Shown here: positions 2,047 through 48,267 of the stretch, piece after piece
How the letters are laid out: each line of letters starts with the position of its first letter
Numbering within the stretch: the stretch's first letter is position 1
Origin: Candidatus Omnitrophota bacterium
Lineage (GTDB): Bacteria > Omnitrophota > Gorgyraeia > JAFGHF01
Direction of reading: 5' to 3'
Length of the DNA: 64,000 nucleotides
Assembly: GCA_042571705.1 (NCBI GenBank)
Contig: JBHPFV010000005.1
Coordinates: forward strand, 4,628-68,627
Notes under the pieces: model-generated
Databases searched by the model: none
Seen by the model: only the letters and a program-made list of their open reading frames with translations
What the model was told of the DNA's origin: nothing
Translations under genes and position numbers: made by a program

Positions 2047-2087
2047 GAGCGAAAAATGTAAAGCGAAAAGCGAAAAATGGGGCGAAA

Positions 2088-3983: not shown

Positions 3984-3992
3984 GAGCGAAAA

Positions 3993-30193: not shown

Positions 30194-30991
30194 ATGGCAG
30201 ATACATTTTATAAAAAATTAGGTATGCGGATTAAAGCCTTAAGAGAGCAAGCTGGATACTCACAGGAGAAATTAGCTGATTTGCTTAAAATAAGCAGGGT
30301 TTCTCTATCGCAGATTGAAACTGGAGATAGAAGGTTAAGCGCCGAGGAAGTAGCGGAGCTATCAAAAGTATTCAACGTTACTTCAGATATTTTACTCGAC
30401 TTAAAAAAGGATATAAAAGTGGTTTTAGAAAAAACAAAGAAACCTACAAAAGTAAGGCCAGAGGTTCGGATTAACGTGCCGCAAAAGAACTTAGATAAGT
30501 TTAAAGAAGTTTTACTCTATATTCTTAATCAAGTGGGCTCAAAGCCAAATATTGGTGAGTCTGTGCTATATAAGCTACTTTATTTTATCGATTTTAATTA
30601 TTACGAGAAATATGAAGAACAGCTTATCGGCGCCACCTACATAAAAAATAATTATGGCCCCACTCCTAAAGAATTTATAAAGATAATTGATGAAATGGAA
30701 GCCCAAAAGGAAATAATTAAAGTGGAGGATAAGTATTTTCAGTATCCCCAGCGAAAGTATCTTCCTTTAGAGACGCCTGATTTATCTAAATTGAAAGCTA
30801 GCGAATTAAAAATGATTGATGATGTATTGGAAAAGCTTTCTGATATGAATGCTGCGCGGATAAGTGAATACTCGCATAACGACGTTCCTTGGCTTACCAC
30901 AGAAGACGGTGAAATAATAGATTACGAATCTGTTTTTTACCGCACCCCGGAATACTCCTTGAGGTCTTACAGTGAAAAAGATATTCAATGA
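30194..30991 (+). CDS. XRE-HTH + DUF4065 (Panacea/SocA-like) antitoxin-type protein
   Basis: N-terminal HTH_XRE (IKALREQAGYSQEKLADLLKISRVSLSQIETG). The C-terminal part (VLYKLLYFIDFNYYEKYEEQLIGATYIKNNYGPTP) is typical of DUF4065. Confidence 0.75.
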   Translation: MADTFYKKLGMRIKALREQAGYSQEKLADLLKISRVSLSQIETGDRRLSAEEVAELSKVFNVTSDILLDLKKDIKVVLEKTKKPTKVRPEVRINVPQKNLDKFKEVLLYILNQVGSKPNIGESVLYKLLYFIDFNYYEKYEEQLIGATYIKNNYGPTPKEFIKIIDEMEAQKEIIKVEDKYFQYPQRKYLPLETPDLSKLKASELKMIDDVLEKLSDMNAARISEYSHNDVPWLTTEDGEIIDYESVFYRTPEYSLRSYSEKDIQ

Positions 30992-31346
30992 AATCAAGGC
31001 CCTCCCGGAATTCGACAAGGATTTAAAAAAACTTAAAAAGTTTAAAACGCTTAAAGAAGATTTAGATATATTTACCGAGAAACAACTTCAGCTTTTTCAT
31101 AAATTAGGCATAGATAATAAGGGAATAGTCCAAATATCAAATCTTGGTATTGAATGTCCAAATATTTATAAAGCAAGAAAGTTTGCTTGTAGATCTTTGA
31201 AAGGCAGAGGATCCGCAAGTGGCATTAGGGTAATTTACGCCTATTTTGAAGATAAAGATCGCGTAGAATTTATTGAGATATACTATAAAGGCGATAAGGA
31301 GAGCGAAGATAGAGGAAGAATTTTAAGGCATTACGGCAAAAAATAG
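30972..31346 (+). CDS. RelE/ParE-superfamily toxin-like protein
   Basis: 124 aa. The GTG start overlaps the upstream gene by 20 nt. GIRVIYAYFEDKDRVEFIEIYYKGDKE matches the conserved RelE/HigB-type beta-sheet core. Confidence 0.6.
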   Translation: MKKIFNEIKALPEFDKDLKKLKKFKTLKEDLDIFTEKQLQLFHKLGIDNKGIVQISNLGIECPNIYKARKFACRSLKGRGSASGIRVIYAYFEDKDRVEFIEIYYKGDKESEDRGRILRHYGKK

Positions 31347-31387
31347 TTTTAAGATATAAGGCGATTGAGATAGTATATCCGTAGGAA

Positions 31388-31450
31388 AAATAGCCGTTGT
31401 AAGTATCATCACTACAACGGCTTGTTATTTCTGGTGCCGAAGCGGGGATT
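31388..31450. repeat. Copy 2 of the hairpin + 19-nt tRNA-Leu 3'-end repeat
   Basis: agccgttgtaagtatcatcactacaacggct, then tggtgccgaagcggggatt (31432-31450). Confidence 0.85.
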
Positions 31451-31506: not shown

Positions 31507-31537
31507 GCGTAACTTTATAATTTATATAAGGTTACGC
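31507..31537. repeat. Island-arm inverted repeat (gcgtaac..gttacgc)
   Basis: The hairpin sits 75 nt after the tRNA-fragment start. The same element with the same spacing is at 41244-41274. Confidence 0.6.
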
Positions 31538-31591: not shown

Positions 31592-31612
31592 TGGCACAAA
31601 TCTGGCACAGAC
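31592..31612. repeat. 21-nt direct repeat TGGCACAAATCTGGCACAGAC (copy 1 of 4)
   Basis: Exact or near-exact copies at 41101, 41329 and 46915, all in the same orientation. Confidence 0.8.
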
Positions 31613-31655: not shown

Positions 31656-31684
31656 TTGACATAGCTTTTATTAAGTGCTATTAT
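31656..31684 (+). promoter_or_regulatory. Sigma-70 promoter TTGACA-17-TATTAT upstream of nikR
   Basis: ttgaca at 31656-31661, tattat at 31679-31684. Preceded by an A-tract. Confidence 0.55.
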
Positions 31685-31713
31685 TTTAAGAAACGTAATA
31701 CCAAGGATAATAT

Positions 31714-32130
31714 ATGTCAGAGTTATTTAGATTTGGAATTTCATTAGAAAAAGAGCTACTAGAAAAATTTGATCATCTTATTAGAGAAGAGAATTATACT
31801 AACCGCTCTGAGGCTTTTCGAGATTTAATCCGTCAGGAGCTAGTAAAGAAGCAGTGGCAGGAAGGTAAAGAGATTGCCGGAGCCATTACTATTATTTACA
31901 ATCACCACAAAAGAGAACTTCTTAACAAAATTATTGATCTCCAACACGACTTTCAAAAAGCGATCATATCCACACAACATATCCATTTGGATCATAATAA
32001 TTGCTTGGAGATAATCGCGATCAAGGGTAACCCAAAAGAAACACAAAAGTTATTCAATACCTTAAAATCTATCAAAGGCATAAAACACGCTGCTCTATCT
32101 ATGACAACGACCGGCAGTAAAATACCTTAA
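31714..32130 (+). CDS. nikR: Nickel-responsive regulator NikR (ribbon-helix-helix + metal-binding ACT-like domain)
   Basis: RFGISLEKELLEKFD...NRSEAFRDLIR RHH domain. C-terminal IIYNHH...HIHLDHNNCLE His/Cys metal-site motifs. Confidence 0.85.
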   Translation: MSELFRFGISLEKELLEKFDHLIREENYTNRSEAFRDLIRQELVKKQWQEGKEIAGAITIIYNHHKRELLNKIIDLQHDFQKAIISTQHIHLDHNNCLEIIAIKGNPKETQKLFNTLKSIKGIKHAALSMTTTGSKIP

Positions 32131-32224
32131 TCTATGGGGTATTATTTTTTTTCTTTGCAAGTAGCACGATTTCGATAATAGTAATATTAACATATTTACA
32201 GCTTCGCAAAGAAGGAAATGAATC

Positions 32225-32980
32225 GTGGGGAAAATTTTAAATTTAATCTTATTTTTGATAATTGCTTTTCCAATAATTGTACCTTCTATTGCCTATGCAG
32301 CAAGGCCTTTATCTACTGATGATGCAGGTACAGTAGAAGAAAGACACATTGAAATTGAAAGTGGCTTTGAATATGTTAATCAAACAGACGAAGAGAATAG
32401 TTTGAATTTAGTGTTAAAATACGGCATTATCAAAAATTTGGATTTGGGCACAGAGCTACCCTATAAATTTATCAATCTTAGTGGAAGCGCTGATGTTGAC
32501 GGCATAGGAGATATAAAAGTTACTACTAAATATCGTTTTTTAGAAGAGACAAAAAAAATTCCTGCTTTGGCTTTTAGTTTTAGCGTTAAAACCAAAACAG
32601 GCAGCGAAGCCAAGGGCATCGGTTCTGGGGAGGTGGATTATATTTTAAACGGGATAATTACTAAAACAATAGATAAGTTCATTAACCATTTAAATTTAGG
32701 TTATACGTTTGTCGGTGAACCTGAGGAGGGAAACCCTGACGATATTTTTTCTTATAGTTTAGCCTTAGAATATCCCATGTATGAGAGGTTAAGTATAGTA
32801 GGAGAGATTGCTGGTGAGACTACCTTTGAGGGAGATTTTGATGACAATCCCTGCAGTGGATTACTGGGGCTAAATTATGCCCTCAACGAAATGACTTCCT
32901 TCGATTTTGGAATGGGATTTAAGATATCAGACGCTAGCCCTGATTACAAAATTATTACAGGTTTGACATTTGGCTTTTAA
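32225..32980 (+). CDS. Outer-membrane beta-barrel transporter-like protein (MetA-pathway/'transporter' OMP family-like)
   Basis: Signal peptide (AYAARPLSTDDAGT..), alternating strands, and a terminal F. GTG start. The family is recalled from memory. Confidence 0.5.
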   Translation: MGKILNLILFLIIAFPIIVPSIAYAARPLSTDDAGTVEERHIEIESGFEYVNQTDEENSLNLVLKYGIIKNLDLGTELPYKFINLSGSADVDGIGDIKVTTKYRFLEETKKIPALAFSFSVKTKTGSEAKGIGSGEVDYILNGIITKTIDKFINHLNLGYTFVGEPEEGNPDDIFSYSLALEYPMYERLSIVGEIAGETTFEGDFDDNPCSGLLGLNYALNEMTSFDFGMGFKISDASPDYKIITGLTFGF

Positions 32981-33005
32981 ATAAAAGGAGAGGAGGGAAG
33001 GTAAA

Positions 33006-33302
33006 ATGTGTTATACTGCACCATTAATAGGAGCTATAGTTACAACTGTGGCTTGGAAAAAGACAAAAGATGTAAAAGTCTGGTGGCTAAACTTAATGTT
33101 CTACGGAGGTGCATTATTTGGAGTAATAGACCATTTTTGGAATGGCGAGTTATTCCTTATTTCCGAAAACATAATTAGCGATTTGCTATTGGGTGTAACT
33201 ATTACAGCTATTATCCTCGTATCATGGGGAGCAGCAGTTATATGGAGCAAGGTAAACCCTACTTTAGCTAATTATGTGAACCTTAAGAGCCAATCCATCT
33301 AA
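33006..33302 (+). CDS. Small integral membrane protein, unknown function
   Basis: 98 aa with three hydrophobic segments. Preceded by GGAGAGGAGGGAAGG. Confidence 0.5.
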   Translation: MCYTAPLIGAIVTTVAWKKTKDVKVWWLNLMFYGGALFGVIDHFWNGELFLISENIISDLLLGVTITAIILVSWGAAVIWSKVNPTLANYVNLKSQSI

Positions 33303-33325
33303 CCCTTTTTGTTTGAAAAAAAGAC

Positions 33326-33354
33326 TTGACAGGGGCTAAGCTATGGAGTATACT
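33326..33354 (+). promoter_or_regulatory. Sigma-70 promoter TTGACA-17-TATACT upstream of the Fur-family gene
   Basis: ttgaca at 33326-33331, tatact at 33349-33354. Preceded by an A-tract. Confidence 0.6.
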
Positions 33355-33389
33355 TGATAATGGAAACCAGTATCAATAGGAGATGAGTG

Positions 33390-33863
33390 ATGCCTCAACG
33401 AGATGGAACAGGACCACCTTGGTGGCACGGAAGGTTTAGGGGATGCGGCTATAGAATGACTGTGCCTAGGCAGGCCATATTAGATGTATTAAGCAAAACA
33501 TCTAAGCATCTGAGTGCTGAGGATGCATATATGGTTGTCCATAAGAACTATCCCAATGTAGGGCTTACGACCGTCTATCGTACTTTAGAATTATTAGTTC
33601 AGGTAGGCCTGGTTTTTAAGTTCGATTTCGGTGATGGGAGAGCACGATATGAGCTGTCAGAAGGGCCAAAAGGAGTTAGGCATCACCACCATTTAGTCTG
33701 TACAGATTGTGGCAGGGTTATTGATTATACAGATTTTATAGATGAAGAAGTAGAATTACTTAATCAAACGGAAAAAGGGCTTTCTAAAAAGTTTAATTTC
33801 AAAATCACTAATCATCTTATCCAATTTTATGGATTATGTGATAAATGCAAAAGTGAGAAATGA
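33390..33863 (+). CDS. fur: Fur-family metalloregulator with an N-terminal MPxxDGTGP (DUF5320-like) extension
   Basis: Winged-helix region (RQAILDVL...TVYRTLELL), HHHHLVCTDCG and CDKC Zn/metal sites. The N-terminus is MPQRDGTGPPWWHGRFRGCG. An AGGAGA RBS lies 8 nt before ATG 33390. Confidence 0.8.
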   Translation: MPQRDGTGPPWWHGRFRGCGYRMTVPRQAILDVLSKTSKHLSAEDAYMVVHKNYPNVGLTTVYRTLELLVQVGLVFKFDFGDGRARYELSEGPKGVRHHHHLVCTDCGRVIDYTDFIDEEVELLNQTEKGLSKKFNFKITNHLIQFYGLCDKCKSEK

Positions 33864-33889
33864 GATTTATATTTTTTTTCACTGTAAAT

Positions 33890-33908
33890 GAAAATGATTA
33901 TCATTAAC
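33890..33908. promoter_or_regulatory. Fur box upstream of the DUF5320 gene
   Basis: gaaaatgattatcattaac matches the classical GATAATGATAATCATTATC consensus at 16 of 19 positions. The core palindrome is aatgat-t-atcatt. Confidence 0.65.
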
Positions 33909-33930
33909 AAACAGGAAGGAGGTGTTTAAG

Positions 33931-34233
33931 ATGCCAGGTTTTGACGGAACCGGTCCCATGGGAATGGGTCCTATAACAGGCGGAGGAAGAGGTTTTTGTG
34001 CCGTGCCTATGAAAGATTGGCGGAGGCCCTTTGGTGGTAGATTCTTTGGTAGAGGCAGAGGCCGAGGCTGGAGACGTGGTTGGTTTGGTTATGGAAGCCC
34101 TAATGCTTCAGAGTTTACGCCGCAACAAGAAGCGGAGATGCTCAAAAAAGAAGCTAAGGCTATGCAGGATGAGATAAACTCCATACACATACGTATAAGT
34201 GAATTGGAATCCGCAGAGAAAAAGACTAAATAA
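33931..34233 (+). CDS. DUF5320-like protein (Gly-rich N-terminus, coiled-coil C-terminus)
   Basis: MPGFDGTGPMGMGPITGGGRGFC, RG-rich middle, C-terminal coiled coil (EAEMLKKEAKAMQDEINSIHIRISELE). A GGAGG RBS precedes ATG 33931. Confidence 0.7.
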   Translation: MPGFDGTGPMGMGPITGGGRGFCAVPMKDWRRPFGGRFFGRGRGRGWRRGWFGYGSPNASEFTPQQEAEMLKKEAKAMQDEINSIHIRISELESAEKKTK

Positions 34234-34262
34234 AAAGCACTTAATAACAAAGGAGTCTATTT

Positions 34263-34661
34263 ATGAGAGTGGCGATATCCACGGATGGGGATTTTGTATC
34301 TGCTCATTTTGGCAGATGTCCGTCATTTACTATTGTCGATATTGAGAATGATAAAGTTACGAAGAGAGAAGTCATAGACAATCCTGGGCATCAACCAGGA
34401 TTTATACCGCAATTCTTGCATGAAAGAGATGTCAATTGTATTGTTGCCGGTGGCATGGGAATGAGGGCAACAGGACTTTTCAACGAACTTAGGATTCAGG
34501 CAGTTGTAGGAGTAAGCGGAAATATTGATGAAGTAATAGAGAAACTTCAAAAAGGAACTTTAGAAGGTGGCGAGAGTCTATGTAAACCTGGTGCAGGAAA
34601 AGGATATGGTTTAGATAAGACTGAATGCGATCATCCTAAACAGGATAAATGTGATCATTGA
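34263..34661 (+). CDS. NifX/NifB-C-terminal-like (dinitrogenase FeMo-cofactor-binding fold) protein
   Basis: MRVAISTDG..VSAHFGRCPSFTIVDIE...VNCIVAGGMG is the typical motif series of this family. Confidence 0.8.
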   Translation: MRVAISTDGDFVSAHFGRCPSFTIVDIENDKVTKREVIDNPGHQPGFIPQFLHERDVNCIVAGGMGMRATGLFNELRIQAVVGVSGNIDEVIEKLQKGTLEGGESLCKPGAGKGYGLDKTECDHPKQDKCDH

Positions 34662-34679
34662 TTGAGAGGTGGTGAGAAC

Positions 34680-35054
34680 ATGAAGATTTGCATAACTTCA
34701 CAAGGAGACAATTTGGATTCACAGGTTGACCCACGCTTTGGAAGATGCCAGTATTTTATCATTACAGATACCCAGACTTCTGGATTAGAGGTAATTCAAA
34801 ATCCGAATATTGATTCCATGGGGGGCGCAGGTATTCAATCAGGGCAACTTGTGGCAACTAAAGGAGCCAAAGTAGTTTTAACTGGCAACGTAGGTCCAAA
34901 CGCCTTTCAGACTTTACAAGCAGCAGGGATCGATGTAATTACCGGAGTATCCGGTATCGTTAAAGATGTAACAAAGAAGTACAAAAAAGGCGAATTTAAG
35001 CCAACCCAAGGCCCAAGTGTCAATTCTAAATTTGGTATGCCAACGAAGAAATAG
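34680..35054 (+). CDS. NifX/NifB-C-terminal-like protein (second copy)
   Basis: MKICITSQGDNLDSQVDPRFGRCQYFIITD...VVLTGNVGPNAFQ. A GAGGTGGTGAG RBS precedes ATG 34680. Confidence 0.8.
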   Translation: MKICITSQGDNLDSQVDPRFGRCQYFIITDTQTSGLEVIQNPNIDSMGGAGIQSGQLVATKGAKVVLTGNVGPNAFQTLQAAGIDVITGVSGIVKDVTKKYKKGEFKPTQGPSVNSKFGMPTKK

Positions 35055-35066
35055 GGAGAACTTAAA

Positions 35067-35240
35067 ATGGCAGTTAGGGTGAATAAAATTAAATGCGATG
35101 GTTGTGGGGCATGCGCTGATGTTTGTCCTGCAAATGCTATTGAAATTAAACAAAGCAAGGTTGTTGTAAGTGATGAGTGCGTGGAATGTGGTGCATGTGT
35201 AGATGAATGTCCAAACGAAGCGATATCGCTTCCAAAATAG
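35067..35240 (+). CDS. 2x[4Fe-4S] ferredoxin (57 aa; absent from the supplied ORF track)
   Basis: It translates to MAVRVNKIKCDGCGACADVCPANAIEIKQSKVVVSDECVECGACVDECPNEAISLPK*, with two CxxCxxCxxxCP motifs. Preceded by a GGGAGAA RBS. Confidence 0.85.
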   Translation: MAVRVNKIKCDGCGACADVCPANAIEIKQSKVVVSDECVECGACVDECPNEAISLPK

Positions 35241-35252
35241 AAGGTGAGTGAA

Positions 35253-35468
35253 ATGCCGAGAGGAGATGGAACAGGACAAGGCCCGGGGACAGGTAAAGGT
35301 ATGGGAAGAGGTGGCGGTAGAGGCAGAATGGGTGGAAAGCGTCCAGGGTCAGGTCCTGGCGGAAGTTGCATCTGTCCAAGTTGTGGTTCGAAGATTCCTC
35401 ATCAGGCTGGGGCGCCGTGTGCTTCTTCAAGTTGCCCCAAATGCGGAAATCAGATGGTGCGGGAGTAA
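35253..35468 (+). CDS. DUF5320-like Gly/Arg-rich protein with C-terminal zinc ribbon
   Basis: MPRGDGTGQGPGTGKGMGRGGGRGR N-terminus. CICPSCG...CPKCG C-terminus. Confidence 0.65.
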   Translation: MPRGDGTGQGPGTGKGMGRGGGRGRMGGKRPGSGPGGSCICPSCGSKIPHQAGAPCASSSCPKCGNQMVRE

Positions 35469-35471
35469 TTA

Positions 35472-36083
35472 TTGAAAGAGAAACTATTAGAAAATCATAA
35501 AAGATATTTAGATAGAATAAATTTCTACAAGAAGTTTAGCTATGATGTTGAAGAAGAGAGAAAATTCATCTTAGAAAAGTCATACCCTCTCTATGGAGAC
35601 ATAGTAGAAGTAGGAACGGGCAAGGGGTATTTCACTGTTGAACTTGCTAAAGAAGGATATAACTTTACCAGTATAGACATTTCAGATGATGAACAGGAAT
35701 TCGCCAGATTTAATATAAAATATTTCGGCTTTGAAAAGCTTGTAGATTTTAGAATAGAGAACGCAGAGCACCTAAGTTTTGACAATTCCAGCTTCGATAT
35801 AATATTTTCTATCAACACAATTCACCATCTTACCAATCCGGTTAAAGTAATAGAGGAGCTGATAAGGATAGCTACCCTTGAAGGAAAGATAATTTTAAGT
35901 GATTTTACTGAAGACGGCTTAAAAATTATAGATAAAGTTCATGCAGCCGAAGGAAGAGTACACAAAGCGGGGCGGACAAACTTATCAGAGGTAGGTAATT
36001 ATTTAGAACGGAGAGGATTTAGTATCCAAAAGCACAAAAGCAGATTTCAAAAAATTCTTATCGCTTATCGCCAAATTATATAA
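35472..36083 (+). CDS. Class I SAM-dependent methyltransferase
   Basis: Motif I IVEVGTGKGYFTVELA, acidic loop SIDISD, and FDIIFSINTIHH. TTG start. Confidence 0.75.
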   Translation: MKEKLLENHKRYLDRINFYKKFSYDVEEERKFILEKSYPLYGDIVEVGTGKGYFTVELAKEGYNFTSIDISDDEQEFARFNIKYFGFEKLVDFRIENAEHLSFDNSSFDIIFSINTIHHLTNPVKVIEELIRIATLEGKIILSDFTEDGLKIIDKVHAAEGRVHKAGRTNLSEVGNYLERRGFSIQKHKSRFQKILIAYRQII

Positions 36084-36088
36084 TAGTT

Positions 36089-36934
36089 ATGATTATTTCA
36101 ATTGCCAGTGGAAAAGGTGGAACAGGAAAGACTACAATAGCCACCAGTCTTGCTCTCTCCATAAATAGTGGTGTTCAATTTTTAGACTGTGATGTTGAAG
36201 AACCCAACGCCCATATTTTCTTAAGACCAAAGATTCAGCAAAGTAAGGCGGTATCTGTTCCCGTACCTAAAATAGATGAATCTAAGTGCACTTTCTGCGG
36301 CAGGTGTGCGGAAGTTTGCGCCTATAATGCCCTTGCCGTGCTCAAGAATAAGGTGCTAACTTTTCCACATTTGTGCCACGGCTGTGGAGGTTGCAATCTT
36401 CTTTGTCCCCAAAAAGCAATCACGGAAGTTAATAAGGAAATAGGTGTTGTAGAAATTGGCAATTCAGCTAACTTGCAATTCATACATGGAAGATTAAATA
36501 TTGGCGAAGTAATGTCACCGCCTTTAATCAGAGCAGTTAAAGAGTACATTAATCCAACCCGGAGCGTAATTGTTGATGCTCCTCCGGGCACTTCTTGTCC
36601 TGTTATAGAGACAGTTAAAGGCAGTGATTTTTGTATGCTGGTTACCGAACCAACTCCTTTTGGTTTAAACGATTTGATATTAGCGGTTGAAGTTTTGAGA
36701 AAATTGAATATTTCCTTTGGAGTTATAGTAAATAGGTCTGGTATCGGAGACAATAGCCTGGGTCATTACTGCAAGAAAGAGAATATTCCTGTACTAATGC
36801 GGATCCCTTTTAGAAAAGAAATAGCTTTTGCCTATTCAAAAGGAATTCCTATTGTGAGTGAATTCCCAAAGTATAAGCAGGAATTTGTAAAGTTATATAA
36901 AGAAATCACGGAAAGAATAAGATGGAGCAAATAG
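36089..36934 (+). CDS. MinD/ParA-type P-loop ATPase with inserted 2x[4Fe-4S] ferredoxin domain
   Basis: Deviant Walker A SGKGGTGKTT. CTFCGRCAEVCAY and CHGCGGCNLLCP clusters. Confidence 0.85.
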   Translation: MIISIASGKGGTGKTTIATSLALSINSGVQFLDCDVEEPNAHIFLRPKIQQSKAVSVPVPKIDESKCTFCGRCAEVCAYNALAVLKNKVLTFPHLCHGCGGCNLLCPQKAITEVNKEIGVVEIGNSANLQFIHGRLNIGEVMSPPLIRAVKEYINPTRSVIVDAPPGTSCPVIETVKGSDFCMLVTEPTPFGLNDLILAVEVLRKLNISFGVIVNRSGIGDNSLGHYCKKENIPVLMRIPFRKEIAFAYSKGIPIVSEFPKYKQEFVKLYKEITERIRWSK

Positions 36935-37764
36935 TAGTAATCAGCGGAAAGGGTGGTACAGGTAAGACAGTGCTGACTGCATCATTTGCCGTCTTAGCGA
37001 AAAATGCAGTCTTTGCGGACTGTGACGTAGATGCAGCTGACCTGCACTTATTATTAAAGCCAGAAATAAAGGAAAAACATGAATTCAGGAGTGGGAGGAC
37101 TGCGAAGATTGATAAAAAGCTTTGCCAAGAATGCGGTAAATGCATAGCTGCCTGCCGTTTTGATGCGGTAAATAAAGATTTCACAGTAGATTCTATCTCC
37201 TGTGAAGGTTGTGGTGTCTGCAATCTTGTTTGTCCAGCGGAAGCTATCAGGATGGAAGAAAACTTATCCGGAGAGTGGTATATATCAGAAACAAAGTACG
37301 GCCCTATGGTACATGCAAAGCTCGGTATTGCCGAAGAAAATTCCGGCAAACTTGTAACGCTAGTACGACAAAATGCAAAGAAAATCGCAGAAAGAGGGAA
37401 TAAGGACTATGTTATTGTTGATGGGCCTCCCGGAATCGGCTGTCCAGTGATTGCTTCATTAGCAAATGTAGATTTAGCCTTGATAGTTACCGAACCCACG
37501 CTTTCCGGTATTCATGATATGAAAAGGGTTGCCGATGTTACTAAGCACTTTGGTGTTAATGCAAAGGTGGTCATAAATAAGTACGATATTAACTTGAAGA
37601 ACACACAGGATATTAGAAAAATTTGCCAGAATAGAAATGTAGAGATTTTGGCCGAACTACCTTTTTCAGAAGATGTTATCAAGTCGTTAGTAGACGAGGT
37701 TCCTGTTGTTACGTATAATAATGCAATAACCAATGAGATTATTGAGTTATGGCAGAAGATTTGA
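36922..37764 (+). CDS. MinD/ParA-type P-loop ATPase with inserted 2x[4Fe-4S] ferredoxin domain (paralogue)
   Basis: SGKGGTGKTV. CQECGKCIAACRF and CEGCGVCNLVCP. Overlaps the upstream gene by 13 nt. Confidence 0.85.
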   Translation: MEQIVVISGKGGTGKTVLTASFAVLAKNAVFADCDVDAADLHLLLKPEIKEKHEFRSGRTAKIDKKLCQECGKCIAACRFDAVNKDFTVDSISCEGCGVCNLVCPAEAIRMEENLSGEWYISETKYGPMVHAKLGIAEENSGKLVTLVRQNAKKIAERGNKDYVIVDGPPGIGCPVIASLANVDLALIVTEPTLSGIHDMKRVADVTKHFGVNAKVVINKYDINLKNTQDIRKICQNRNVEILAELPFSEDVIKSLVDEVPVVTYNNAITNEIIELWQKI

Positions 37765-38129
37765 CTTATTACCCAAAGCAAATCGTAACACTTGCTAAGA
37801 GCCCAAAACATTTTGGAAGAATGAACGACCCCACTAGTAGCGCATGTATTAAGGGTCCCTGTGGGGATGAAATGGAGTTTTATCTTACTATCAAGGACAA
37901 ATTCATCGAAGATGCAACATTCTACACTAAAGGTTGCATTGCAACAATAGTATGTGGTTCTATGACCGCACAGTTAGCAGCAGGAAAGTCTGTTAATCAG
38001 GCTCTAGGGCTTTCTCCAAGAAAGGTAATTGAAGCCTTGAATGGTTTGCCGGAAGATAATTGCCACTGTTCCATTTTAGCTGTCAGCGCTCTTTATAGAG
38101 CTATTGCAGACTATTTGCTTAAGAAATAA
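37749..38129 (+). CDS. IscU/NifU-N-terminal-like Fe-S cluster scaffold protein
   Basis: The three conserved Cys contexts are present: GPCGDEMEF, KGCIATIVCGS, NCHCSILAVSAL. Confidence 0.75.
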   Translation: MAEDLTYYPKQIVTLAKSPKHFGRMNDPTSSACIKGPCGDEMEFYLTIKDKFIEDATFYTKGCIATIVCGSMTAQLAAGKSVNQALGLSPRKVIEALNGLPEDNCHCSILAVSALYRAIADYLLKK

Positions 38130-38142
38130 AAGGTTATGAAGG

Positions 38143-38853
38143 ATGCAAATAAGAGTACTTTTTGATAGCGTTGCTATGGATAACAGGTTTTTAACGGGAT
38201 GGGGTGTTTCATATTTAATTGATGGAAAAGTTCTATTTGATACAGGTGAGAAATCAAGTTCATTGTTTAGGAATATGCAAACTATGGGCGTGAGGATTTC
38301 TGATATAAAAGTGGTTGTTATTTCTCATGACCATTGGGATCACAGAGGTGGTTTATGGGGGATTTTGAAAGAAAATCCCAAGCTAAAAGTTTGTGCTTGC
38401 CCTAATTTTAGCAGAAGATTTAAGAATAGGGTTAAATCTTCTGGTGGTCAACTAATCGAAGCCGATCAATTTACTCAAGTTTACAAAGATATTTATAGCA
38501 CTGGAGAGGTAGAAGGAAGATATGTCGGTAAATACATGCCAGAACAAGCCCTAGTTTTAAGAACAAAAAAAGGTATATCGGTCCTTACAGGTTGTGCTCA
38601 TCCCGGAATAATAAGGATTATTGAAAATGTAAAACGAAGTATATCTGGCAATATTTATCTTGTTATGGGCGGTTTTCATCTGATGGGTAAACATAAAAAG
38701 ACAATCACACCTATTGTGGATAAATTTCGGCAGTTGAAAATAAAGAAAGTTGCGCCCAGACATTGCACCGGCAAAAATGCTGCAGAGTTATTTAAAGAAA
38801 AATATGGTGGCGATTTTATTGAGGTAAAAGTCGGACAAACAATAGAAATATGA
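38143..38853 (+). CDS. Metallo-beta-lactamase-fold protein
   Basis: ISHDHWDHRGG (HxHxDH), a later GCAHPG, and a final HCTG. Confidence 0.75.
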   Translation: MQIRVLFDSVAMDNRFLTGWGVSYLIDGKVLFDTGEKSSSLFRNMQTMGVRISDIKVVVISHDHWDHRGGLWGILKENPKLKVCACPNFSRRFKNRVKSSGGQLIEADQFTQVYKDIYSTGEVEGRYVGKYMPEQALVLRTKKGISVLTGCAHPGIIRIIENVKRSISGNIYLVMGGFHLMGKHKKTITPIVDKFRQLKIKKVAPRHCTGKNAAELFKEKYGGDFIEVKVGQTIEI

Positions 38854-38913
38854 TTTGGCACCTTCTTAAGAGCTGGTACAACTGATGGGGGCCGGTCACT
38901 AGAAAGGAGAAAA

Positions 38914-40071
38914 ATGGATAACAGGTCTTGGTTCTCGCAAATCGCTTTTAAACAACGGATTTGGCTGTTTTCAACCTTAGCAGGAATGCTTGCGATTATA
39001 GCTTTTGGGATTTTGTTAAGCCCACCGAGCAAGTCAAAGGAATCAATCGATTTCAACATTAATATGTCTATTCAGGATATTGCTCCCAAACTTGGAGTTA
39101 CAGGTAAAGGCCTTGCCAGGGAACTTGAACTGCCACTCGACGCTTCTAAGAAAAAACCAGTCCGGACGTTAGGTGTGACATACGAAGAACTTGATCATGC
39201 CATTGAACACATTCTATCCCATCATGATTCTGTGCTTAAATATTATGTTTATGCAGCACTGGTTCTCTTGGGACTTGTATTTCTTGTGAGACTAGGGCGT
39301 CCAGATAATTCTGATAGTAAGAACCGCCGTGTCTGGTACCCAAAAACCCCATATATTGTTGCTCTCTTGTTTTCTGTAATAGTAGCTGGATTCATTCTTG
39401 GCAAGTCACCTAATCCCATGGAAGGGACGGTCAAAATATTTAAATCCATGGTGGGGCTTTATCCTGATCCAATGGTCAAAGTAATCGCCTTTGTCTTCTT
39501 CATTATATTGGCCATTGTTGGAAATAAAATTATTTGTGGCTGGGCGTGTCCTTTTGGTGCTTTGCAGGAACTTATCTACAGCATACCAATTTTACGAAAA
39601 ATCAAAAAAATGAAACTCCCATTTGTATTCACAAACGCAATCCGCGCATGTCTTTTTTTTGCCATGCTTCTTTTTCTGTTTGGAATCATTGGAGGGCGCA
39701 AGGGATTTGTGATTTATCACTACGTTAACCCTTTTAACCTATTTAATCTTGATTTCGAGACATTCAGTATTCTGCTGACAGTAACCGTTGCCTTGTTGAT
39801 ATCATTTATTATCTACCGTCCATTTTGTCAATTTATTTGCCCTTTTGGCCTTGTTTCTTGGATAACTGAGCGATTCAGCATTTTTCGTATTCGAATTAAC
39901 AAGGAGAAGTGCACCCAATGCGGTGCCTGTATGAAGGCATGTCCCCTAGAAGCTGCAAAAGGCCGGGTTAACAGAAAAAGATTACCAGCAGATTGTTTTA
40001 GCTGTGCGCGTTGTTTGAATGTTTGTCCAGTTGATGCCATTCAATATGCACCTTCCTTAAAAAAGGCATAA
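38914..40071 (+). CDS. Integral-membrane polyferredoxin (NapH/MauN/NosR-like 4Fe-4S binding protein)
   Basis: Multiple TM segments with the membrane Cys motifs CGWACPFGALQE and CQFICPFG. C-terminal CTQCGACMKACP and CFSCARCLNVCP. Confidence 0.8.
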   Translation: MDNRSWFSQIAFKQRIWLFSTLAGMLAIIAFGILLSPPSKSKESIDFNINMSIQDIAPKLGVTGKGLARELELPLDASKKKPVRTLGVTYEELDHAIEHILSHHDSVLKYYVYAALVLLGLVFLVRLGRPDNSDSKNRRVWYPKTPYIVALLFSVIVAGFILGKSPNPMEGTVKIFKSMVGLYPDPMVKVIAFVFFIILAIVGNKIICGWACPFGALQELIYSIPILRKIKKMKLPFVFTNAIRACLFFAMLLFLFGIIGGRKGFVIYHYVNPFNLFNLDFETFSILLTVTVALLISFIIYRPFCQFICPFGLVSWITERFSIFRIRINKEKCTQCGACMKACPLEAAKGRVNRKRLPADCFSCARCLNVCPVDAIQYAPSLKKA

Positions 40072-40192: not shown

Positions 40193-40942
40193 ATGGTGAA
40201 AAAGTTTATTTATTCAGGAATAATTGTAGGCCTGGCAATCATTTTGAGCTCTTGCGCTAGAGCGCCAATTAGACCTATAGCATATCCACCCAAAGAGGCA
40301 CCTATTTTAAGGAAAGATGTCATTCATACAGTAGCCCCAGGAGAGACGGTTTGGCGTATAGCTAAGATGTATGATATTGAAACCAAAGATATCATGCGGG
40401 CGAACACTCTAAAAAAGGCAAAAGAGCTAAAAATGGGCCAACGTCTTTTTATACCAGATGCTGCGCCACTCAAAGCAGTCATTTCCCTTTACCGCTCTAA
40501 GAAATGGAAATACATCATTATTCACCACAGCGCAACCGATGAAGGATGTGCGTTGCATTTCCATTTTGCGCATCATTCAAGGGGATTTAAAAAAGGATTG
40601 GGTTACCACTTTGTTATTGATAATGGAACGCGGGGAAAAGAGGATGGACATATTGAAGTTTCACCTCGTTGGTTAAAACAACTGGATGGCGCGCACTGCA
40701 AGGCTTCAGGAATGAATAACAAGGGAATAGGCATTTGTCTTGTGGGCAATTTCAATAAAGAACAAGTTCCTAAAAAACAGATGGATTCATTACTATATTT
40801 GGTGAATTGCCTGAGAAAACACTATAGAGTTCCTCTAAAAAACATAATGGGACATGACCAGGTTTTCGGGGCAAAAACAGAATGTCCGGGTAAGAATTTC
40901 CCTTTAGATAAATTTAAAGAACAACTTGGAGCATCAAATTGA
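40193..40942 (+). CDS. Lipoprotein: LysM + N-acetylmuramoyl-L-alanine amidase (Amidase_2/PGRP type)
   Basis: Lipobox ILSSC. LysM (HTVAPGETVWRIAKMYDIETKDIMRANTL). Amidase_2 motifs (IIIHHSAT, GYHFVIDNG, GHDQV..ECPG). Confidence 0.8.
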   Translation: MVKKFIYSGIIVGLAIILSSCARAPIRPIAYPPKEAPILRKDVIHTVAPGETVWRIAKMYDIETKDIMRANTLKKAKELKMGQRLFIPDAAPLKAVISLYRSKKWKYIIIHHSATDEGCALHFHFAHHSRGFKKGLGYHFVIDNGTRGKEDGHIEVSPRWLKQLDGAHCKASGMNNKGIGICLVGNFNKEQVPKKQMDSLLYLVNCLRKHYRVPLKNIMGHDQVFGAKTECPGKNFPLDKFKEQLGASN

Positions 40943-40980
40943 GGGAATACAAATGGGTAAAAAAATAATACCCTAACAGA

Positions 40981-41066
40981 TTAAGGTATTTTACTGCCTG
41001 TCGTTGTCATAGATAGAGCAGCGTGTTTTATGCCTTTGATGGATTTTAAGATATTCAATAGCTTTT
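40981..41066 (-). pseudogene. Inverted 3' fragment of a nikR gene
   Basis: The reverse complement of 40958-41066 is near-identical to nikR 32045-32152. It encodes ..LLNILKSIKGIKHAALSMTTTGSKIP*, including the stop and downstream hairpin. Confidence 0.8.
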
Positions 41067-41100
41067 TTGAAAAGTGCCGTTGAAAAATTAGATTTTTAAC

Positions 41101-41186
41101 TGGCACAAATCCGGCACAGACAAAAAAGAGTCGTTGTAACCCCAATAGTTACAACGACACATATTTTCTGGTGCCGAAGCGGGGAT
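41101..41186. repeat. 21-nt DR (copy 2) + terminator-like hairpin + 18-nt tRNA-Leu 3'-end copy (boundary between islets B and A)
   Basis: tggcacaaatccggcacagac, then gtcgttgtaac..gttacaacgac, then tggtgccgaagcggggat (41169-41186). Confidence 0.85.
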
Positions 41187-41243: not shown

Positions 41244-41274
41244 GTGTAACTGCATTATAAATATAAAGTTACGC
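41244..41274. repeat. Island-arm inverted repeat (gtgtaac..gttacgc), second copy
   Basis: Lies 75 nt after the tRNA-fragment start, as in islet B. Confidence 0.6.
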
Positions 41275-41328: not shown

Positions 41329-41349
41329 TGGCACAAATTTGACACAAGA
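41329..41349. repeat. 21-nt direct repeat, degenerate copy 3 (tggcacaaatttgacacaaga)
   Basis: Lies 160 nt after the tRNA-fragment start. Copy 1 sits exactly as far from its own tRNA fragment. Confidence 0.65.
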
Positions 41350-41682: not shown

Positions 41683-44600
41683 ATGCGCAAGAGAAGTCCC
41701 AAAAGAAGACAAGATGCCTCCTGGATCTGGCTATGCAGCCTGCTAGCCATATTCTTTATCTTTATTATAGTCAGCTATGGCAGGGGTAGCCTAAGAGCAA
41801 ACGGTTCTTACCAAAAGACTGTCTCTCAAGTAGCCGAAAGCATTAAACTCACCCCCTACACTCCACCTACCCTAAAAAGCCTAATCGTCCATCCTGAATC
41901 CACTGATAACTACTTTGACTTTATCCTGGACACCCAGGAAGAACCTGTTGAAGATGAGGATAGCTTAGAGCCTATAGCCAAGGAACTAATCGACTACTTC
42001 TTCTTAGGTATCACCCTGCCAAGTGATGATCTCTGGGTTAACCTTAACTCAGTCCGGCAAAATGCCATCACCAGCCCCAGACTTGCCTTAACAGACATAG
42101 GAAAGGTACTTTTAGAGGCAGATTTAACCCTGAAGAAGGACTGCTGTAGGTTTACTGATCCTAGAACCAAGACCGGTAAAGAATACTGGGGTAAACTACA
42201 AGCCAGGCTTAATGAAGCAAACCTAAGTACCTCTCAACTACCCATAGGCAATAGGTTCTGGATCATACCAGAGGAAGCTGTTGTAGAGGAAAACTCTGAT
42301 AATCATACAGTCACCATAGTCAAATCCAAGCTAAAAGTTTGCCTACAACAAGAATACCTTGAACTACAAAACAACCAAGTAACCCTCTTATCTGACCAAA
42401 ATCAACACCCCCAAGCAAGATTAGCCCAGGATATTGCCGACTTTACCATGAAAGAGGTAATACTACCAGCTATTCAAGAAGAGGTAAACTATGGCAAAGC
42501 TTATGCCAAATTAAGACAAGTTTATAACTCCCTGATCTTAGCTGAATACTACAAGCAGAAATACCACCATGGCCAGGGACTATACCCCAAACTCATCAAC
42601 AGAGCCCATATCCAAGGCTTAGAGTCAAATGAACCTTGGAACACCCAAGACTTCTATCAGGCCTATGTCAAATCCGCTCAAGAAGGCGAATATAAGCTTA
42701 CTCAACAAGAATATGACCCCTACCTTGCTTCAATGGTCCAGAAATACTACTTCTATGGGGGTGTGTTGATTAGCAAACTAAGGGATGTTTTGCAGAGAAG
42801 GGTAAAAGATTCAAGTTCTGCAATGCAAAAACAAGCTGAGGCCTTAAGGATAGAAATTGATAAAGATGCGGAAGGACGCTACTGGTATGTTCGAAACTAC
42901 ACCCAACCGCAAAGCCCATGGAAGACCATTATAAAGATTTTCAGAGGAAAGAAGCCAAAAGATCAGGTAGAATTTGCAGGCAGGCCTATCGAGTCCTCCG
43001 AAAAGTATAGGCTAAAGCAAATATTAGAAAAATTTGAAAGTGAGTCAAATGTTGTACCATCTTATGATGAATCGAGTTATGTCTCTATTTTGTCGGATGA
43101 GCTATGTCATAATGTAGGCTGGGATAGTTTTATCGCTTCTCATTTAGATAATAATTTTTTAATACGTGAATCCGCTTTCAAGAACGATAACCTGTTAACA
43201 ATCACCTTATTATTGCCTAATCAATTTAGGTGGGAACATTCTCTAGATTCATTACGTGCACTTAATGAAAAACTTATGACATTTGGGCTTTATGTTGATA
43301 GTAAGGGAACCCTATATGAGATAGAAGATAAGGGGTTGGTGGATACGGATCAGGGAGCAGTAGAAGTCCTTTATGTACATCTTATTGATAAATATCCCGA
43401 TGGGGAAAAGAGAAGCGGAGGATTTAGCTCCCACAGTGATAATCGAATAGTTATATGTAGAGATGCAATAAAAAGACAGGTTACAGAGATCAAGCAGGTT
43501 TTAAATAGCATGACCTCCGTAGATATAAGTAAAGGTGCAAAATTAGTAGGTATCGCACTATTGAAAAAGGGACTCGGATCTTCTGATTTCAAAGAATGCT
43601 GCAGATTGGTTGAACAAGGCATACTTCTTCATGAGGTTAAGCATGAAGTTTGCAGGCGCATGTTAGGAGGGCAGGCAAAAGTTAAATGGCCAGTTTTGGA
43701 CGAAGAATTTGCAGAACTGTACACAATTAGAAATGCAGAAGAACCTTTTCATATTCTTGCCAACCTTGTTGGCAAAATTGCAGTACAGCAAGAACTTACG
43801 GAAGAAGAAGCTAGAGAACGACAAGCAGCAGTTAATGTTTTGATCCGGCTGTCAAAGCTTCGAAATATGGATGTTTTTCCTTGGCTATCTTTTATGGTAG
43901 AAAGAGGGACTAAAGAAGACTTAAATGATGCAGCTAGAGTAGCCTATGTAGACTCGGAAGAAGTATGGATAGAACAATATGCCAAACTTGGCCATCAATT
44001 CGGCGGGCCCAGTGGAGGGCTCCACGCTGGGGAAGTAGAGCCGGCGATTCGAAGAATTCTAAAAGCAGATCCAGGATTAGCTGATAAATCTGCGGAAGAA
44101 CTCCTTGAGCATCTTAAACAACACCATGAAGGAATATTTGATGCTGTGGATAAAGCAAAGAGGATAGAGCAAGTTCAAAACATATTAGATATAAAGAGAA
44201 ATTCGTTGCGGCAATTTCAATATTTGACAGAGAAAGACGAAAATTGGCCGTTAATATTGACATTTTTTCAAGATCTTGGTGTGCAGCAAAATTATAACAT
44301 TGCCCATGTCGGTGTACATGCTCAAAGTAATATGGCAATTGCTGCTGCCTATTTAGAAGCACATTATACAGGATATGAGTTAGATCTCGAGAACTTTAGT
44401 AGGAACCAAGAGTATATAAGCCAATTGCTCAATACTCCTCAGGTAGCTAAAGAATTGCCTGGGACGATCAAGTATCTTCAGGGAGAGTTCTCTTCAGGGG
44501 AAAAGTCTCAATCTAAATCTTTTGGCCAGCGAAGCCAGGATGTTGTTTTAATAATAAGTGGCGCTTTAAGTGATCCTTATTATCCTGTATCTGACCCGGA

Positions 44601-46914: not shown

Positions 46915-46935
46915 TGGCACAAATCTGGCACAGAC
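46915..46935. repeat. 21-nt direct repeat TGGCACAAATCTGGCACAGAC (copy 4)
   Basis: Identical to copy 1. Lies 69 nt from the tRNA 3' end. Confidence 0.8.
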
Positions 46936-46983: not shown

Positions 46984-47070
46984 TGGTGCCGAAGCGGGGA
47001 TTCGAACCCCGACGAGATTGCTCTCACAACGCCCTGAACGTTGCGTGTCTGCCAGTTTCACCACTTCGGC
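46984..47070 (-). tRNA. tRNA-Leu(CAG), type II (long variable arm), CCA encoded
   Basis: The minus strand reads GCCGAAGTGGTGAAACTGGCAGACACGCAACGTTCAGGGCGTTGTGAGAGCAATCTCGTCGGGGTTCGAATCCCCGCTTCGGCACCA. Acceptor GCCGAAG/CTTCGGC. Anticodon stem CAACG/CGTTG with loop TTCAGGG. T-arm CGGGG-TTCGAAT-CCCCG. Confidence 0.9.
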
Positions 47071-47733: not shown

Positions 47734-47794
47734 CAGTTTACGGTCCTAATCCTTGATTTTTCCTCTTCGCTGTGCTATATTAAGAGTCTGTGAA

Positions 47795-48250: not shown

Positions 48251-48267
48251 CCAGATAGCTAAAAAAC

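Follow-up and report, generated by a model that had tools for sequence, protein, structure and literature searches.

Between 33.3 and 38.9 kb of a 64-kb stretch of a metagenome-assembled Candidatus Omnitrophota genome (contig JBHPFV010000005.1, positions 4,628 to 68,627; hereafter the window) lies a gene set that, judged from homology and gene order, is an operon of the "orange protein complex" (ORP) type of strict anaerobes. Fur-type control and accessory scaffold and redox genes set it apart from the known ORP operons. New here are two conserved Fur boxes, an N-terminal motif shared between proteins of the operon, and fusions of the PF02579 domain to DUF5320 or to a 74-aa protein family that we call ZnR74. 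The gene content, homologies, synteny, operator conservation and domain fusions described below are direct observations. We propose, with a probability of about one half, that the operon is an iron-responsive machine for iron-sulfur (Fe-S) buffering and delivery. Little is understood of the ways in which strict anaerobes store, traffic and sense iron-sulfur species, and the ORP system, like thousands of NifX-fold proteins outside nitrogenase, has been without a settled role since 2011.

An ORP-type operon and its conserved core

The region from 31656 to 40071 contains 15 genes, all on the plus strand, and an earlier note made from the DNA letters had their order and domains right, as judged from open reading frames (ORFs), Pfam and NCBIfam. 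The part of main interest begins with a Fur-family regulator (33387/33390-33863; FUR PF01475, 5.5e-32, residues 21-148), followed by a DUF5320 protein (33922/33931-34233; PF17253, 2e-22) and two Nitro_FeMo-Co proteins, NifX1 (34263-34661; PF02579, 3e-22) and NifX2 (34662/34680-35054; PF02579, 1.5e-24). Next come a 57-aa 2x[4Fe-4S] ferredoxin (35067-35240; Fer4, 1.9e-16), the Gly/Arg-rich Cys protein ZnR74 (35244/35253-35468; 74 aa, nothing above cut-off in Pfam or NCBIfam) and a class I S-adenosylmethionine (SAM)-dependent methyltransferase (35472-36083; Methyltransf families). Two MinD/ParA-type ATPases, MinD1 (36089-36934) and its paralogue MinD2 (36922-37764), are CbiA/ParA proteins with a Fer4 insert, a 2x[4Fe-4S] one in MinD1, and are followed by an IscU/NifU_N-type scaffold (37749-38129; NifU_N, 5e-25) and an MBL-fold metalloprotein (38143-38853; Lactamase_B). 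Where two starts are given, homologues indicate that the real start is the internal ATG (33390 for fur, 33931 for DUF5320, 35253 for ZnR74 and 34680 for NifX2). MinD1/MinD2, MinD2/IscU and NifX1/NifX2 overlap or abut, with the MinD2 start overlapping the MinD1 stop codon, which fits one transcription unit from fur onward.

The two PF02579 proteins are the clearest link to the ORP system. NifX2 has D. gigas ORP as its top PDB match (2WFB, E 3.7e-22) and MTH1175 as its second; it is a basic protein (isoelectric point [pI] 9.4) of the ORP/Orp8/MTH1175 type with two cysteines, one of them conserved. NifX1 (pI 5.5, five cysteines) hits the NCBIfam MrpORP model in its C-terminal "Di-Nase" domain at 1e-26 and scores 94 bits against NF041136, whose cut-off is 450. 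Its full length aligns at 38-39% identity with the Di-Nase domains of Dde_3202 and a Thermodesulfobium homologue, with which it shares HFGxC, HxPGxxP and a C-terminal Cys (sequences from the PMC6345978 supplement), and its H15, C19, H43 and C107 are essentially invariant among 52 homologues. On these matches, NifX1 is a stand-alone copy of the MrpORP Di-Nase domain.

The two ATPases are 31% identical paralogues, and both have a deviant Walker A motif and eight conserved ferredoxin cysteines. Each has two more invariant cysteines, C34 (DCDV) and C170/C174 ((S/G)CPV; in MinD1 this is C170, SCPV). Their nearest families by sequence are MinD/CbiA (Pfam, NCBIfam and PDB), with weak NCBIfam matches to MrpORP and ApbC, and a PDB search found no solved structure with the MinD1-type architecture. 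They share the deviant Walker A P-loop with Mrp/NBP35/ApbC and with other SIMIBI ATPases (NifH, CooC), and their conserved cysteines beyond the ferredoxin insert make a cluster or metal site plausible; they lack the CXXC of Mrp/NBP35 and carry a 2x[4Fe-4S] ferredoxin inserted after the P-loop. Orp3 and Orp4 of Desulfovibrio are described as MinD-like proteins with two [4Fe-4S] motifs (PMC6345978), and MinD1/MinD2 are Orp3/Orp4-like, matched by architecture and that published description.

Gene order follows the same pattern. The Desulfovibrio orders are orp5-orp4-orp3 and orp7-orp8-orp9 (PMC8359166). ZnR74-(methyltransferase)-MinD1-MinD2 parallels the former and DUF5320-NifX1-NifX2 the latter, and gene position, taken by itself, suggests that ZnR74 corresponds to Orp5 and DUF5320 to Orp7. 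Maiti et al. in 2016 reportedly found Orp5 (Dde_3197) to be a small multi-cysteine protein binding [2Fe-2S]. Six Cys and one His of ZnR74 are conserved to at least 98% each, which makes it a plausible candidate for the Orp5 equivalent by ligand count as well as by position.

The likeness to the ORP complex of D. vulgaris Hildenborough and D. alaskensis G20 (Orp3, Orp4, Orp5, Orp8 and Orp9/MrpORP) therefore extends, where published descriptions were compared, to an ORP/Orp8 homologue, a Di-Nase domain, two adjacent MinD-type ATPases with two [4Fe-4S] motifs each, and a small Cys-rich protein encoded upstream of the ATPases as orp5 is; both systems are confined to anaerobes. The Desulfovibrio genes form two divergent operons, whereas those of the window form a single co-directional one. 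The Mrp/NBP35 P-loop (CXXC) half of MrpORP is missing, and the window cluster has no Mrp/NBP35 gene; it adds IscU, the MBL protein, the methyltransferase, the ferredoxin and a polyferredoxin. The earlier note regarded the NifX-like/MinD-ferredoxin/DUF5320 core as an uncharacterized neighborhood that recurs in anaerobes. Recurrence was borne out (84 loci in many phyla), but the core is the ORP operon studied in Desulfovibrio, where the Orp proteins form a physical complex (PMC6345978, PMC8359166), both MrpORP domains bind Fe-S clusters and MrpORP passes Fe-S to Orp3/Orp4 (PMC6345978, PMC8359166), and ORP as isolated carries a Mo-Cu-S cluster, [S2MoS2CuS2MoS2]3- (PMC6345978). Literature searches on COG1433/COG1149 and on MTH1175 with Fur yielded nothing about the present operon, and mentions of DUF5320 were irrelevant to it.

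Relatives of MinD1 are encoded in at least 583 species genomes, the best 80 of them 59-78% identical, and MinD1-bearing taxa include Omnitrophota, Planctomycetia, Clostridia, Thermodesulfovibrionales, Elusimicrobia, Aminicenantes, Dehalococcoidia, Zixibacteria, WOR-3 and Spirochaetes, among others. Six-frame ORFs of 84 related loci were searched with the window's own proteins; upstream genes were counted in the 49 loci whose sequence reaches at least 4 kb upstream of MinD1, and downstream genes in the 55 that reach at least 4 kb downstream. Upstream partners are NifX2 (44/49), DUF5320 (41), ZnR74 (37), NifX1 (34) and Fur (30), and MinD2 follows in 54 of the 55 downstream regions. These counts define a conserved unit, Fur-DUF5320-NifX-NifX-ZnR74-MinD-MinD. 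IscU (25/55), the MBL protein (21/55) and the methyltransferase (16/49) are frequent accessories, and the ferredoxin occurs in 8/49. The same gene order is seen in existing annotations of three long contigs. Together, the sequences mark the cluster as real, strongly conserved, belonging to anaerobic bacteria and probably concerned with Fe-S cluster handling.

Four genes of the window are rare add-ons outside this conserved set: nikR (31714-32130, plus strand; RHH plus NikR_C nickel-binding domain, NikR_C 7e-30, NF003381 9e-54 and 181 bits against a cut-off of 105), an outer membrane (OM) beta-barrel of the Phenol_MetA_deg (PF13557) type (32225-32980, plus strand; Pfam 2.6e-14), a 98-aa protein with three hydrophobic segments and no family match in Pfam or NCBIfam (33006-33302, plus strand), and a NapH/NosR-type membrane polyferredoxin (38914-40071, plus strand; Fer4_5 plus Fer4). 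They occur in 3, 2 and 2 of the 49 upstream regions and 2 of the 55 downstream regions, respectively. The uptake-like, scaffold and redox extension of the core pointed out in the earlier note is thus present here, but among relatives its uptake-like and membrane-redox parts are rare and IscU is the part that recurs. One locus, L003, reproduces the whole arrangement from nikR through the polyferredoxin, and homologues of the 98-aa protein were found in L003 and L056 only among the surveyed loci. ORFs upstream of fur in L001 were considered as relatives of the OM barrel and the small membrane protein and rejected as non-homologous.

Candidate ligand residues are intact in IscU, NifX1, ZnR74 and both ATPases. 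IscU keeps the canonical set C38, C63, H106 and C107; these Cys, Cys and His-Cys ligands are those of the clostridial NifU/IscU scaffold, and the top match is TIGR03419 NifU_clost (4e-27, below the model cut-off). It differs from ISC/NIF systems in lacking the cysteine desulfurase, chaperones and ferredoxin of an isc operon, and it scores below the IscU/NifU equivalog cut-offs. The MBL protein has an HxHxDH motif and conserved C151 and C208, with 7DCK (3.6e-38) and TM1679 as its top PDB matches.

Among 113 genes flanking the related clusters, radical SAM is the commonest Pfam family (9/113). Pyridine-nucleotide-disulphide oxidoreductases, methyltransferases, DUF134, ABC transporters, FeoB and Mrp are also among the commonest families; the "heavy-metal chelation" families DUF364 and DUF4213 account for 4/113 and 3/113, and CDF cation-efflux proteins for 3/113. 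Genes for nif functions, hydrogenase and carbon monoxide dehydrogenase (CODH) are absent from the 25 commonest families of this set, and none occurs in the 64-kb window, in line with the earlier note's view of the region as free of nitrogenase genes.

Probable Fur-type control and the tail-like proteins

A predicted sigma-70-type promoter of the fur operon, P2 (33326-33354, plus strand; TTGACA-17-TATACT, 11/12 consensus), is followed directly after its -10 hexamer by a Fur box, O1 (GATAATGGAAACCAGTATC, 33356-33374), which matches the classical 19-bp Fur box GATAATGATAATCATTATC, our reference operator, at 15 of 19 positions. The TTGACA...TATAxT arrangement precedes fur in most related loci. A second box, O2 (core AATGATTATCATT, 33890-33908), lies between the fur stop and the DUF5320 start; it matches at 17/19 on the minus strand and is the sole site in the 64 kb within 3 mismatches of the reference. 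Equivalents of O1 scoring at least 14/19 were found in 36 of 45 related loci, and equivalents of O2 in 24 of 52 DUF5320 upstream regions, mostly 37-50 nucleotides (nt) ahead of the start codon. Against a background of about 2% (for O1, of random 200-nt windows), the binomial p values are ~1e-52 and ~1e-26, values that treat the loci as independent, which, being related, they are not. Presence of O2 goes with that of an adjacent fur gene (17/34 versus 1/15 loci; Fisher p=0.004).

The Fur protein contains the DNA-binding and dimerization domain of its family, including HHHH and CxxC...CxxC motifs. In NCBIfam it reaches none of the equivalog cut-offs for Fur, PerR or Zur, Bacillus-type Fur being the nearest model, and it carries an N-terminal extension of 20 residues (MPQRDGTGPPWWHGRFRGCGYR; pattern MPxRDGTGPPWWHGRFRGCGYR). 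This extension is kept in 33 of 46 operon Furs and is lacking in ordinary Furs encoded elsewhere in the same loci. The operators are thus like those of classical Fur regulons, whereas the regulator differs from classical ones in its extension and its sub-cut-off scores. In one related locus (L001), a fur-feoB-feoA/dtxR-permease block precedes the cluster by ~1.2 kb, an interval that contains two unannotated ORFs. The position of O1 at the fur promoter suggests autoregulation, and the operon is most likely an autoregulated one under Fur-type control with iron as the likely signal, both binding and metal being predictions. Such a switch with two operators predicts iron-responsive expression. The Desulfovibrio genes are controlled otherwise, by sigma-54 and the redox-sensing OrpR; no gene for an enhancer-binding protein was found by Pfam or NCBIfam in the islet that carries the present cluster, whose controls are sigma-70-like promoters and Fur boxes. 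An Rfam scan of 29-49 kb returned no riboswitch or other regulatory RNA.

The earlier note placed the cluster under two metal regulators, of which Fur is supported and NikR is not. The nikR gene has its own predicted sigma-70-type promoter, P1 (31656-31684, plus strand; TTGACA-17-TATTAT, TG-extended, 11/12 consensus), its linkage to the core is rare, and a candidate H. pylori-type NikR operator at 31679 (2 mismatches) was discarded, such matches being not above chance in the window (10 found, 4.2 expected). With neither a significant operator of this type nor frequent linkage, control of the core by NikR is unsupported; nikR, the OM barrel and the small membrane protein are a separate, independently promoted three-gene module, which here happens to adjoin the core.

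DUF5320 and ZnR74 are built from related parts. The N-terminus of DUF5320 bears the motif MPGFDGTGPMGMGPMTGGGRGFCA with an invariant Cys in the family alignment (MPGFDGTGP...C in the window copy), its middle is a variable cationic stretch of Gly, Arg and aromatic residues, and its C-terminus is an amphipathic, coiled-coil-like segment. ZnR74 starts with the same motif (MPRGDGTG), followed by (GRG)n, and closes with a Cys-rich ribbon in which C42, C44, C47, H53, C59, C64 and C67 are each at least 98% conserved. The description of ZnR74 as DUF5320-like in the earlier note is therefore apt for the N-terminal motif and not for the remainder. The ZnR74 family comprises 1431 clusters at 50% identity with E<=1e-3, and each of the ten representatives looked up is named "hypothetical protein." A profile of the 26-residue DUF5320 N-motif gave 11 ZnR74 hits at E<=1e-3 but reached Fur only at E=0.055, so that the Fur likeness is confined to the short motif MPxxDGTGP; the first nine residues of the Fur extension match the DUF5320/ZnR74 start. 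A regular expression for the start motif, run on 12,696 ORFs, hit 52 DUF5320, 40 ZnR74 and 12 Fur proteins; the remaining 11 hits were all DUF5320-like, and no unrelated ORF was hit. At the DNA level, the fur and ZnR74 starts share a 25-nt repeat that is 84% identical. These matches point to an N-terminal MPxxDGTGP motif common to DUF5320 and ZnR74 and, less securely, to Fur.

In two clostridial-type loci (L042 and L066), variants of the N-motif proteins include one that is a Gly/Arg/aromatic tail only, lacking the coiled-coil part, and another that is membrane-anchored, which suggests that the N-motif proteins form a modular family.

Domain fusions connect both proteins to the NifX fold. In about 22 loci, the ORP-like NifX2 protein bears a C-terminal (GMGRG)n stretch and then a DUF5320-type C-terminal segment, and Pfam recovers PF02579 and PF17253 above their curated cut-offs in 8 of 9 fused proteins tested. 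PF02579 is fused to the ZnR74 module in L010, P0276, P0332, P0357 and P0372. The fusions came from the related loci; a word-index search for DUF5320 fusions retrieved stand-alone proteins only. Such independent fusions indicate that DUF5320 and ZnR74 probably work together with the NifX-fold domain, and they tie DUF5320 and the large unnamed ZnR74 family (at least 1431 clusters) to that domain. Larger combinations also occur: in two metagenomic proteins, P0242 (985 aa) and P0244 (1430 aa), several copies each of PF02579 and of the ZnR74 module accompany two PDZ domains, and in P0257 (189 aa) a "putative Fe-S cluster" domain (PF04060) is combined with a DUF5320-type N-motif and a ZnR74 module.

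[quoted passage not shown] The globular domain of IssA is IPR003731/PF02579, as in NifX1 and NifX2, and a cationic, Gly/Arg/aromatic, single-Cys sequence goes with that domain in both systems: residues 1-57 of DUF5320 contain 18 Gly, 10 Arg/Lys, 10 aromatics and 1 Cys (pI 11.9), and the 70-aa IssA tail contains 15 Gly, 7 cationic residues, 14 aromatics and 1 Cys (pI 10.7) (PMC5524996). The domain-plus-tail layout of IssA is reproduced by the approximately 22 fused relatives, whereas the window encodes the "tail" as separate proteins, DUF5320 and ZnR74, and DUF5320 has an N-terminal motif and a coiled-coil-like C-terminus, neither of which is described for IssA. The IssA clade is defined by a pI of at least 9, fewer than 5 Cys and at least 20% Gly in the C-terminal 40 residues (PMC5524996 supplement); NifX2 has 12.5% Gly (5/40) and falls under the looser "IssX" definition only. 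IssA is induced by excess Fe and S, whereas the window operon looks Fur-repressed, and the thioferrate (FeS2-)n polymer and nanoparticles of IssA are at most a prediction for members of the present operon type. In Methanococcus voltae, the IssA-like Mvol_0689 and Mvol_0693 flank two CbiA-family proteins with Fe-S motifs, Mvol_0691 and Mvol_0692, and all four are up 2.3- to 5-fold on pyrite along with FeoA, FeoB and DtxR (PMC8516115 supplement). Judged from its annotation and gene order, it seems to be a cluster of the present kind, induced together with iron acquisition.

A proposed iron-sulfur buffering and delivery role and its rivals

In the mechanism that we propose, Fur with its metal signal, most likely Fe2+, would bind O1 in the start region of the fur promoter and O2 upstream of DUF5320, and loss of the signal would lead to expression of the whole gene set. 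The two NifX-fold proteins, one ORP-like and basic and the other MrpORP-Di-Nase-like with His/Cys ligands, would hold Fe-S species, and the cationic DUF5320 and ZnR74 proteins, acting as detached IssA-like tails, would wrap or stabilize these anionic species, possibly for storage. MinD1 and MinD2, presumably as a heterodimer, would use ATP and low-potential electrons to load or unload the carriers, with IscU as an acceptor or donor scaffold and the MBL protein, methyltransferase, ferredoxin and polyferredoxin as accessory components. If this is right, ORP-type operons belong to iron homeostasis rather than to cell division, and two "hypothetical" protein families gain a role.

Several points weigh against this proposal. 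Even for the Desulfovibrio ORP complex, the role is described as unclear (PMC8359166), and ORP as isolated binds a Mo-Cu-S cluster and not Fe-S (PMC6345978). This operon has neither the Mrp/NBP35 P-loop half of MrpORP nor OrpR/sigma-54 control. Orp3/4, Orp5, Orp7 and the P. furiosus IssA tail are likened to the present proteins by description or position and not by sequence, the match to the M. voltae cluster likewise comes from annotation and gene order, and for the proteins of this operon the case is built from genes and relatives. Half of the loci with an adjacent fur gene (17/34) have no O2 match at 14/19, and iron is most likely, but by prediction, the metal sensed by this Fur. The survey is biased to close MinD1 relatives: of at least 583 matches it takes in the best 80, none of which falls below 59% identity to MinD1. 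Finally, "storage" and "Fur-repressed" combine awkwardly, since IssA is induced by abundant Fe/S and a classical Fur operon by Fe shortage; mobilization or assimilation of FeS may fit better than storage.

Other readings share part of this evidence. Handling of heterometal sulfide clusters (Mo/W-Cu or Ni), for example in thiomolybdate-copper sequestration or Ni/Fe-S enzyme maturation, with the NifX-fold proteins binding as ORP does, is unlikely. The closest solved relative of NifX2 is ORP with its [S2MoS2CuS2MoS2]3- cluster (PMC6345978), nikR stands at the head of the islet, and DUF364/DUF4213 (4/113 and 3/113) and CDF cation-efflux genes (3/113) flank some clusters. [quoted passage not shown] Nitrogenase-type (FeMo-co) cofactor maturation, of which the operon would be a remnant or auxiliary part, draws on PF02579 being the NifX/NafY/NifB C-terminal domain and on a very weak match to TIGR02663 nifX (E 0.0098). 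That match reaches 16 bits against a cut-off of 112, nifHDKENB genes are found neither in the 64-kb window nor in the 25 commonest families of the 113 flanking genes, and the closest relatives are ORP/MTH1175 and MrpORP/PH0822, not NifX or NafY; the chance of this reading is next to negligible. The two outcomes that the earlier note regarded as fatal to its own view were not seen: profile searches kept the NifX-like assignment (PF02579, 3e-22 and 1.5e-24), no contiguity with nitrogenase appeared in the window or the commonest flanking families, and the neighborhood comparison gave a conserved gene order in the 84 related loci.

Two further alternatives start from the ATPases. SIMIBI-class cluster-bridging ATPases such as NifH and Nbp35 have a layout that resembles MinD1/MinD2, with which an ATP-dependent, NifH- or activase-like delivery of low-potential electrons would agree; the pair would activate or repair a partner enzyme, and the NifX-like and Gly/Arg-rich proteins would serve as adaptors. 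The deviant Walker A, the eight ferredoxin cysteines and the invariant C34 and C170/C174 of both ATPases are compatible with this, as are the dedicated ferredoxin, here joined by a membrane polyferredoxin, and the rank of radical SAM as the commonest flanking family (9/113). Yet the operon has no conserved candidate substrate enzyme, its conserved partners are cluster-binding NifX-fold proteins and IscU, ferredoxin (8/49) and polyferredoxin (2/55) are infrequent, and Fur-type control points to metal homeostasis, so we consider electron delivery quite improbable. A role in cell division or polar positioning, the original proposal for the Desulfovibrio Orp proteins, would here depend on the MinD-like ATPases and seems very improbable. 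Inactivation of OrpR causes morphological defects in D. vulgaris, MrpORP is located at one cell pole, Orp3/Orp4 have predicted amphipathic C-terminal helices (PMC6345978, PMC8359166), and MinD is the nearest NCBIfam and PDB family of the ATPases. The published phenotype is indirect, however, and its authors call the role unclear (PMC8359166); no conserved division genes lie beside the cluster among the flanking genes of the surveyed loci, and it is Fur, NifX-fold proteins and IscU that are conserved alongside the ATPases.

Iron-responsive Fe-S buffering and delivery, which we prefer, can be taken further, in a form about which we are doubtful. DUF5320 and ZnR74 would be detachable IssA-type tails, ORP-type operons would be a widespread bacterial counterpart of archaeal thioferrate-like storage or assimilation, and Fur, bearing the same peptide, might read the loading of an Fe-S store or carrier rather than, or besides, free Fe2+. 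If true, this would be a new sensing mode for a Fur-family regulator. Modification of the Gly-Arg repeats by the co-encoded SAM methyltransferase is a possibility.

Islets at the tRNA-Leu gene and neighboring elements

The cluster lies in the second of three tandem islets at the 3' end of an intact tRNA-Leu(CAG) gene (46984-47070, minus strand; tRNA search), whose 3' end, together with the terminator hairpin, recurs as the border unit. The left border of islet B (31386-31449, plus strand; direct-repeat family D1) and its right border (41123-41186, plus strand) each consist of the hairpin and the 18 nt of the tRNA-Leu(CAG) 3' end. This 18-mer, TGGTGCCGAAGCGGGGAT, has four exact copies where none is expected: at 30054, 31432 and 41169 besides the gene at 46984. 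Islet A (~30.07-31.43 kb) has an HTH/SocA-Panacea antitoxin gene and a partner gene, islet B (~31.45-41.17 kb, 9.7 kb) the cluster, and islet C (~41.19-46.98 kb) a gene for a 1712-aa orphan protein. No ORF between 30.0 and 47.0 kb has an integrase or transposase domain by Pfam or NCBIfam, and G+C content does not separate the islet from downstream DNA. The mobile islet of the earlier note is thus backed by its tRNA-Leu direct repeats but not by any integrase or transposase gene in that interval. The cluster occurs in differing contexts among relatives, and the high cross-phylum identity of MinD1 fits either horizontal spread or strong constraint; a "portable" cluster is plausible from these sequence comparisons.

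The left ends of islets B and C have ~170 nt in common, and both islets are bracketed by TGGCACAAATCTGGCACA, which occurs on the plus strand at 31592-31609, 41101-41118, 41329-41346 and 46915-46932 (four copies, none expected). This element resembles a sigma-54 -24/-12 element (TGGCAC-N5-TGGCA), has no copy in the 84 related loci, and may be a promoter or a recombination site. About 60 nt in from their left ends, islets B and C each contain a palindrome, GCGTAAC-N17-GTTACGC (31507-31537 and 41246-41274), possibly a structure of the element ends; the islet B copy precedes a T-run and so looks like a terminator.

Downstream of the polyferredoxin, islet B carries a passenger gene for a cell-wall amidase with LysM and Amidase_2 domains (40193-40942, plus strand; Pfam), which is also found downstream of the cluster in L006 and L017. 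It is followed by an inverted copy of the nikR 3' end, a 111-bp pseudogene fragment (40959-41069, minus strand) that is 87% complementary to 32042-32152; the ORF at 40981-41145 on the minus strand (54 aa) ends in the NikR C-terminus. The inverted nikR arms flank 8.8 kb and could mediate its inversion. An intact nikR is present in L006, where it comes after the amidase downstream of the cluster.

The islet A pair, an HTH_3 plus SocA/Panacea antitoxin-type gene (30194-31346, plus strand) overlapping a familyless ORF of 124 aa, looks like a toxin-antitoxin system. The 1712-aa ORF (41683-46821, plus strand) is the only cargo of islet C and has no match in Pfam or NCBIfam. Abutting the 5' end of tRNA-Leu(CAG) is a 207-aa ORF (47071-47694, minus strand) that scores 28.1 bits with LAGLIDADG_3 (cut-off 22.5) and may be homing-endonuclease-like; it is the only candidate nuclease, situated outside the islets. 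SmpB and tmRNA genes (47753-48651, plus strand) adjoin tRNA-Leu and the islet array, and tmRNA/SmpB-type sites are typical insertion hot spots for genomic islands. To our knowledge, no cellulosomes have been described for Omnitrophota; at the far left of the window (22-6260, plus strand), three consecutive large proteins each end in a type I dockerin, one of them with a beta-helix and one with a Laminin_G_3 domain.

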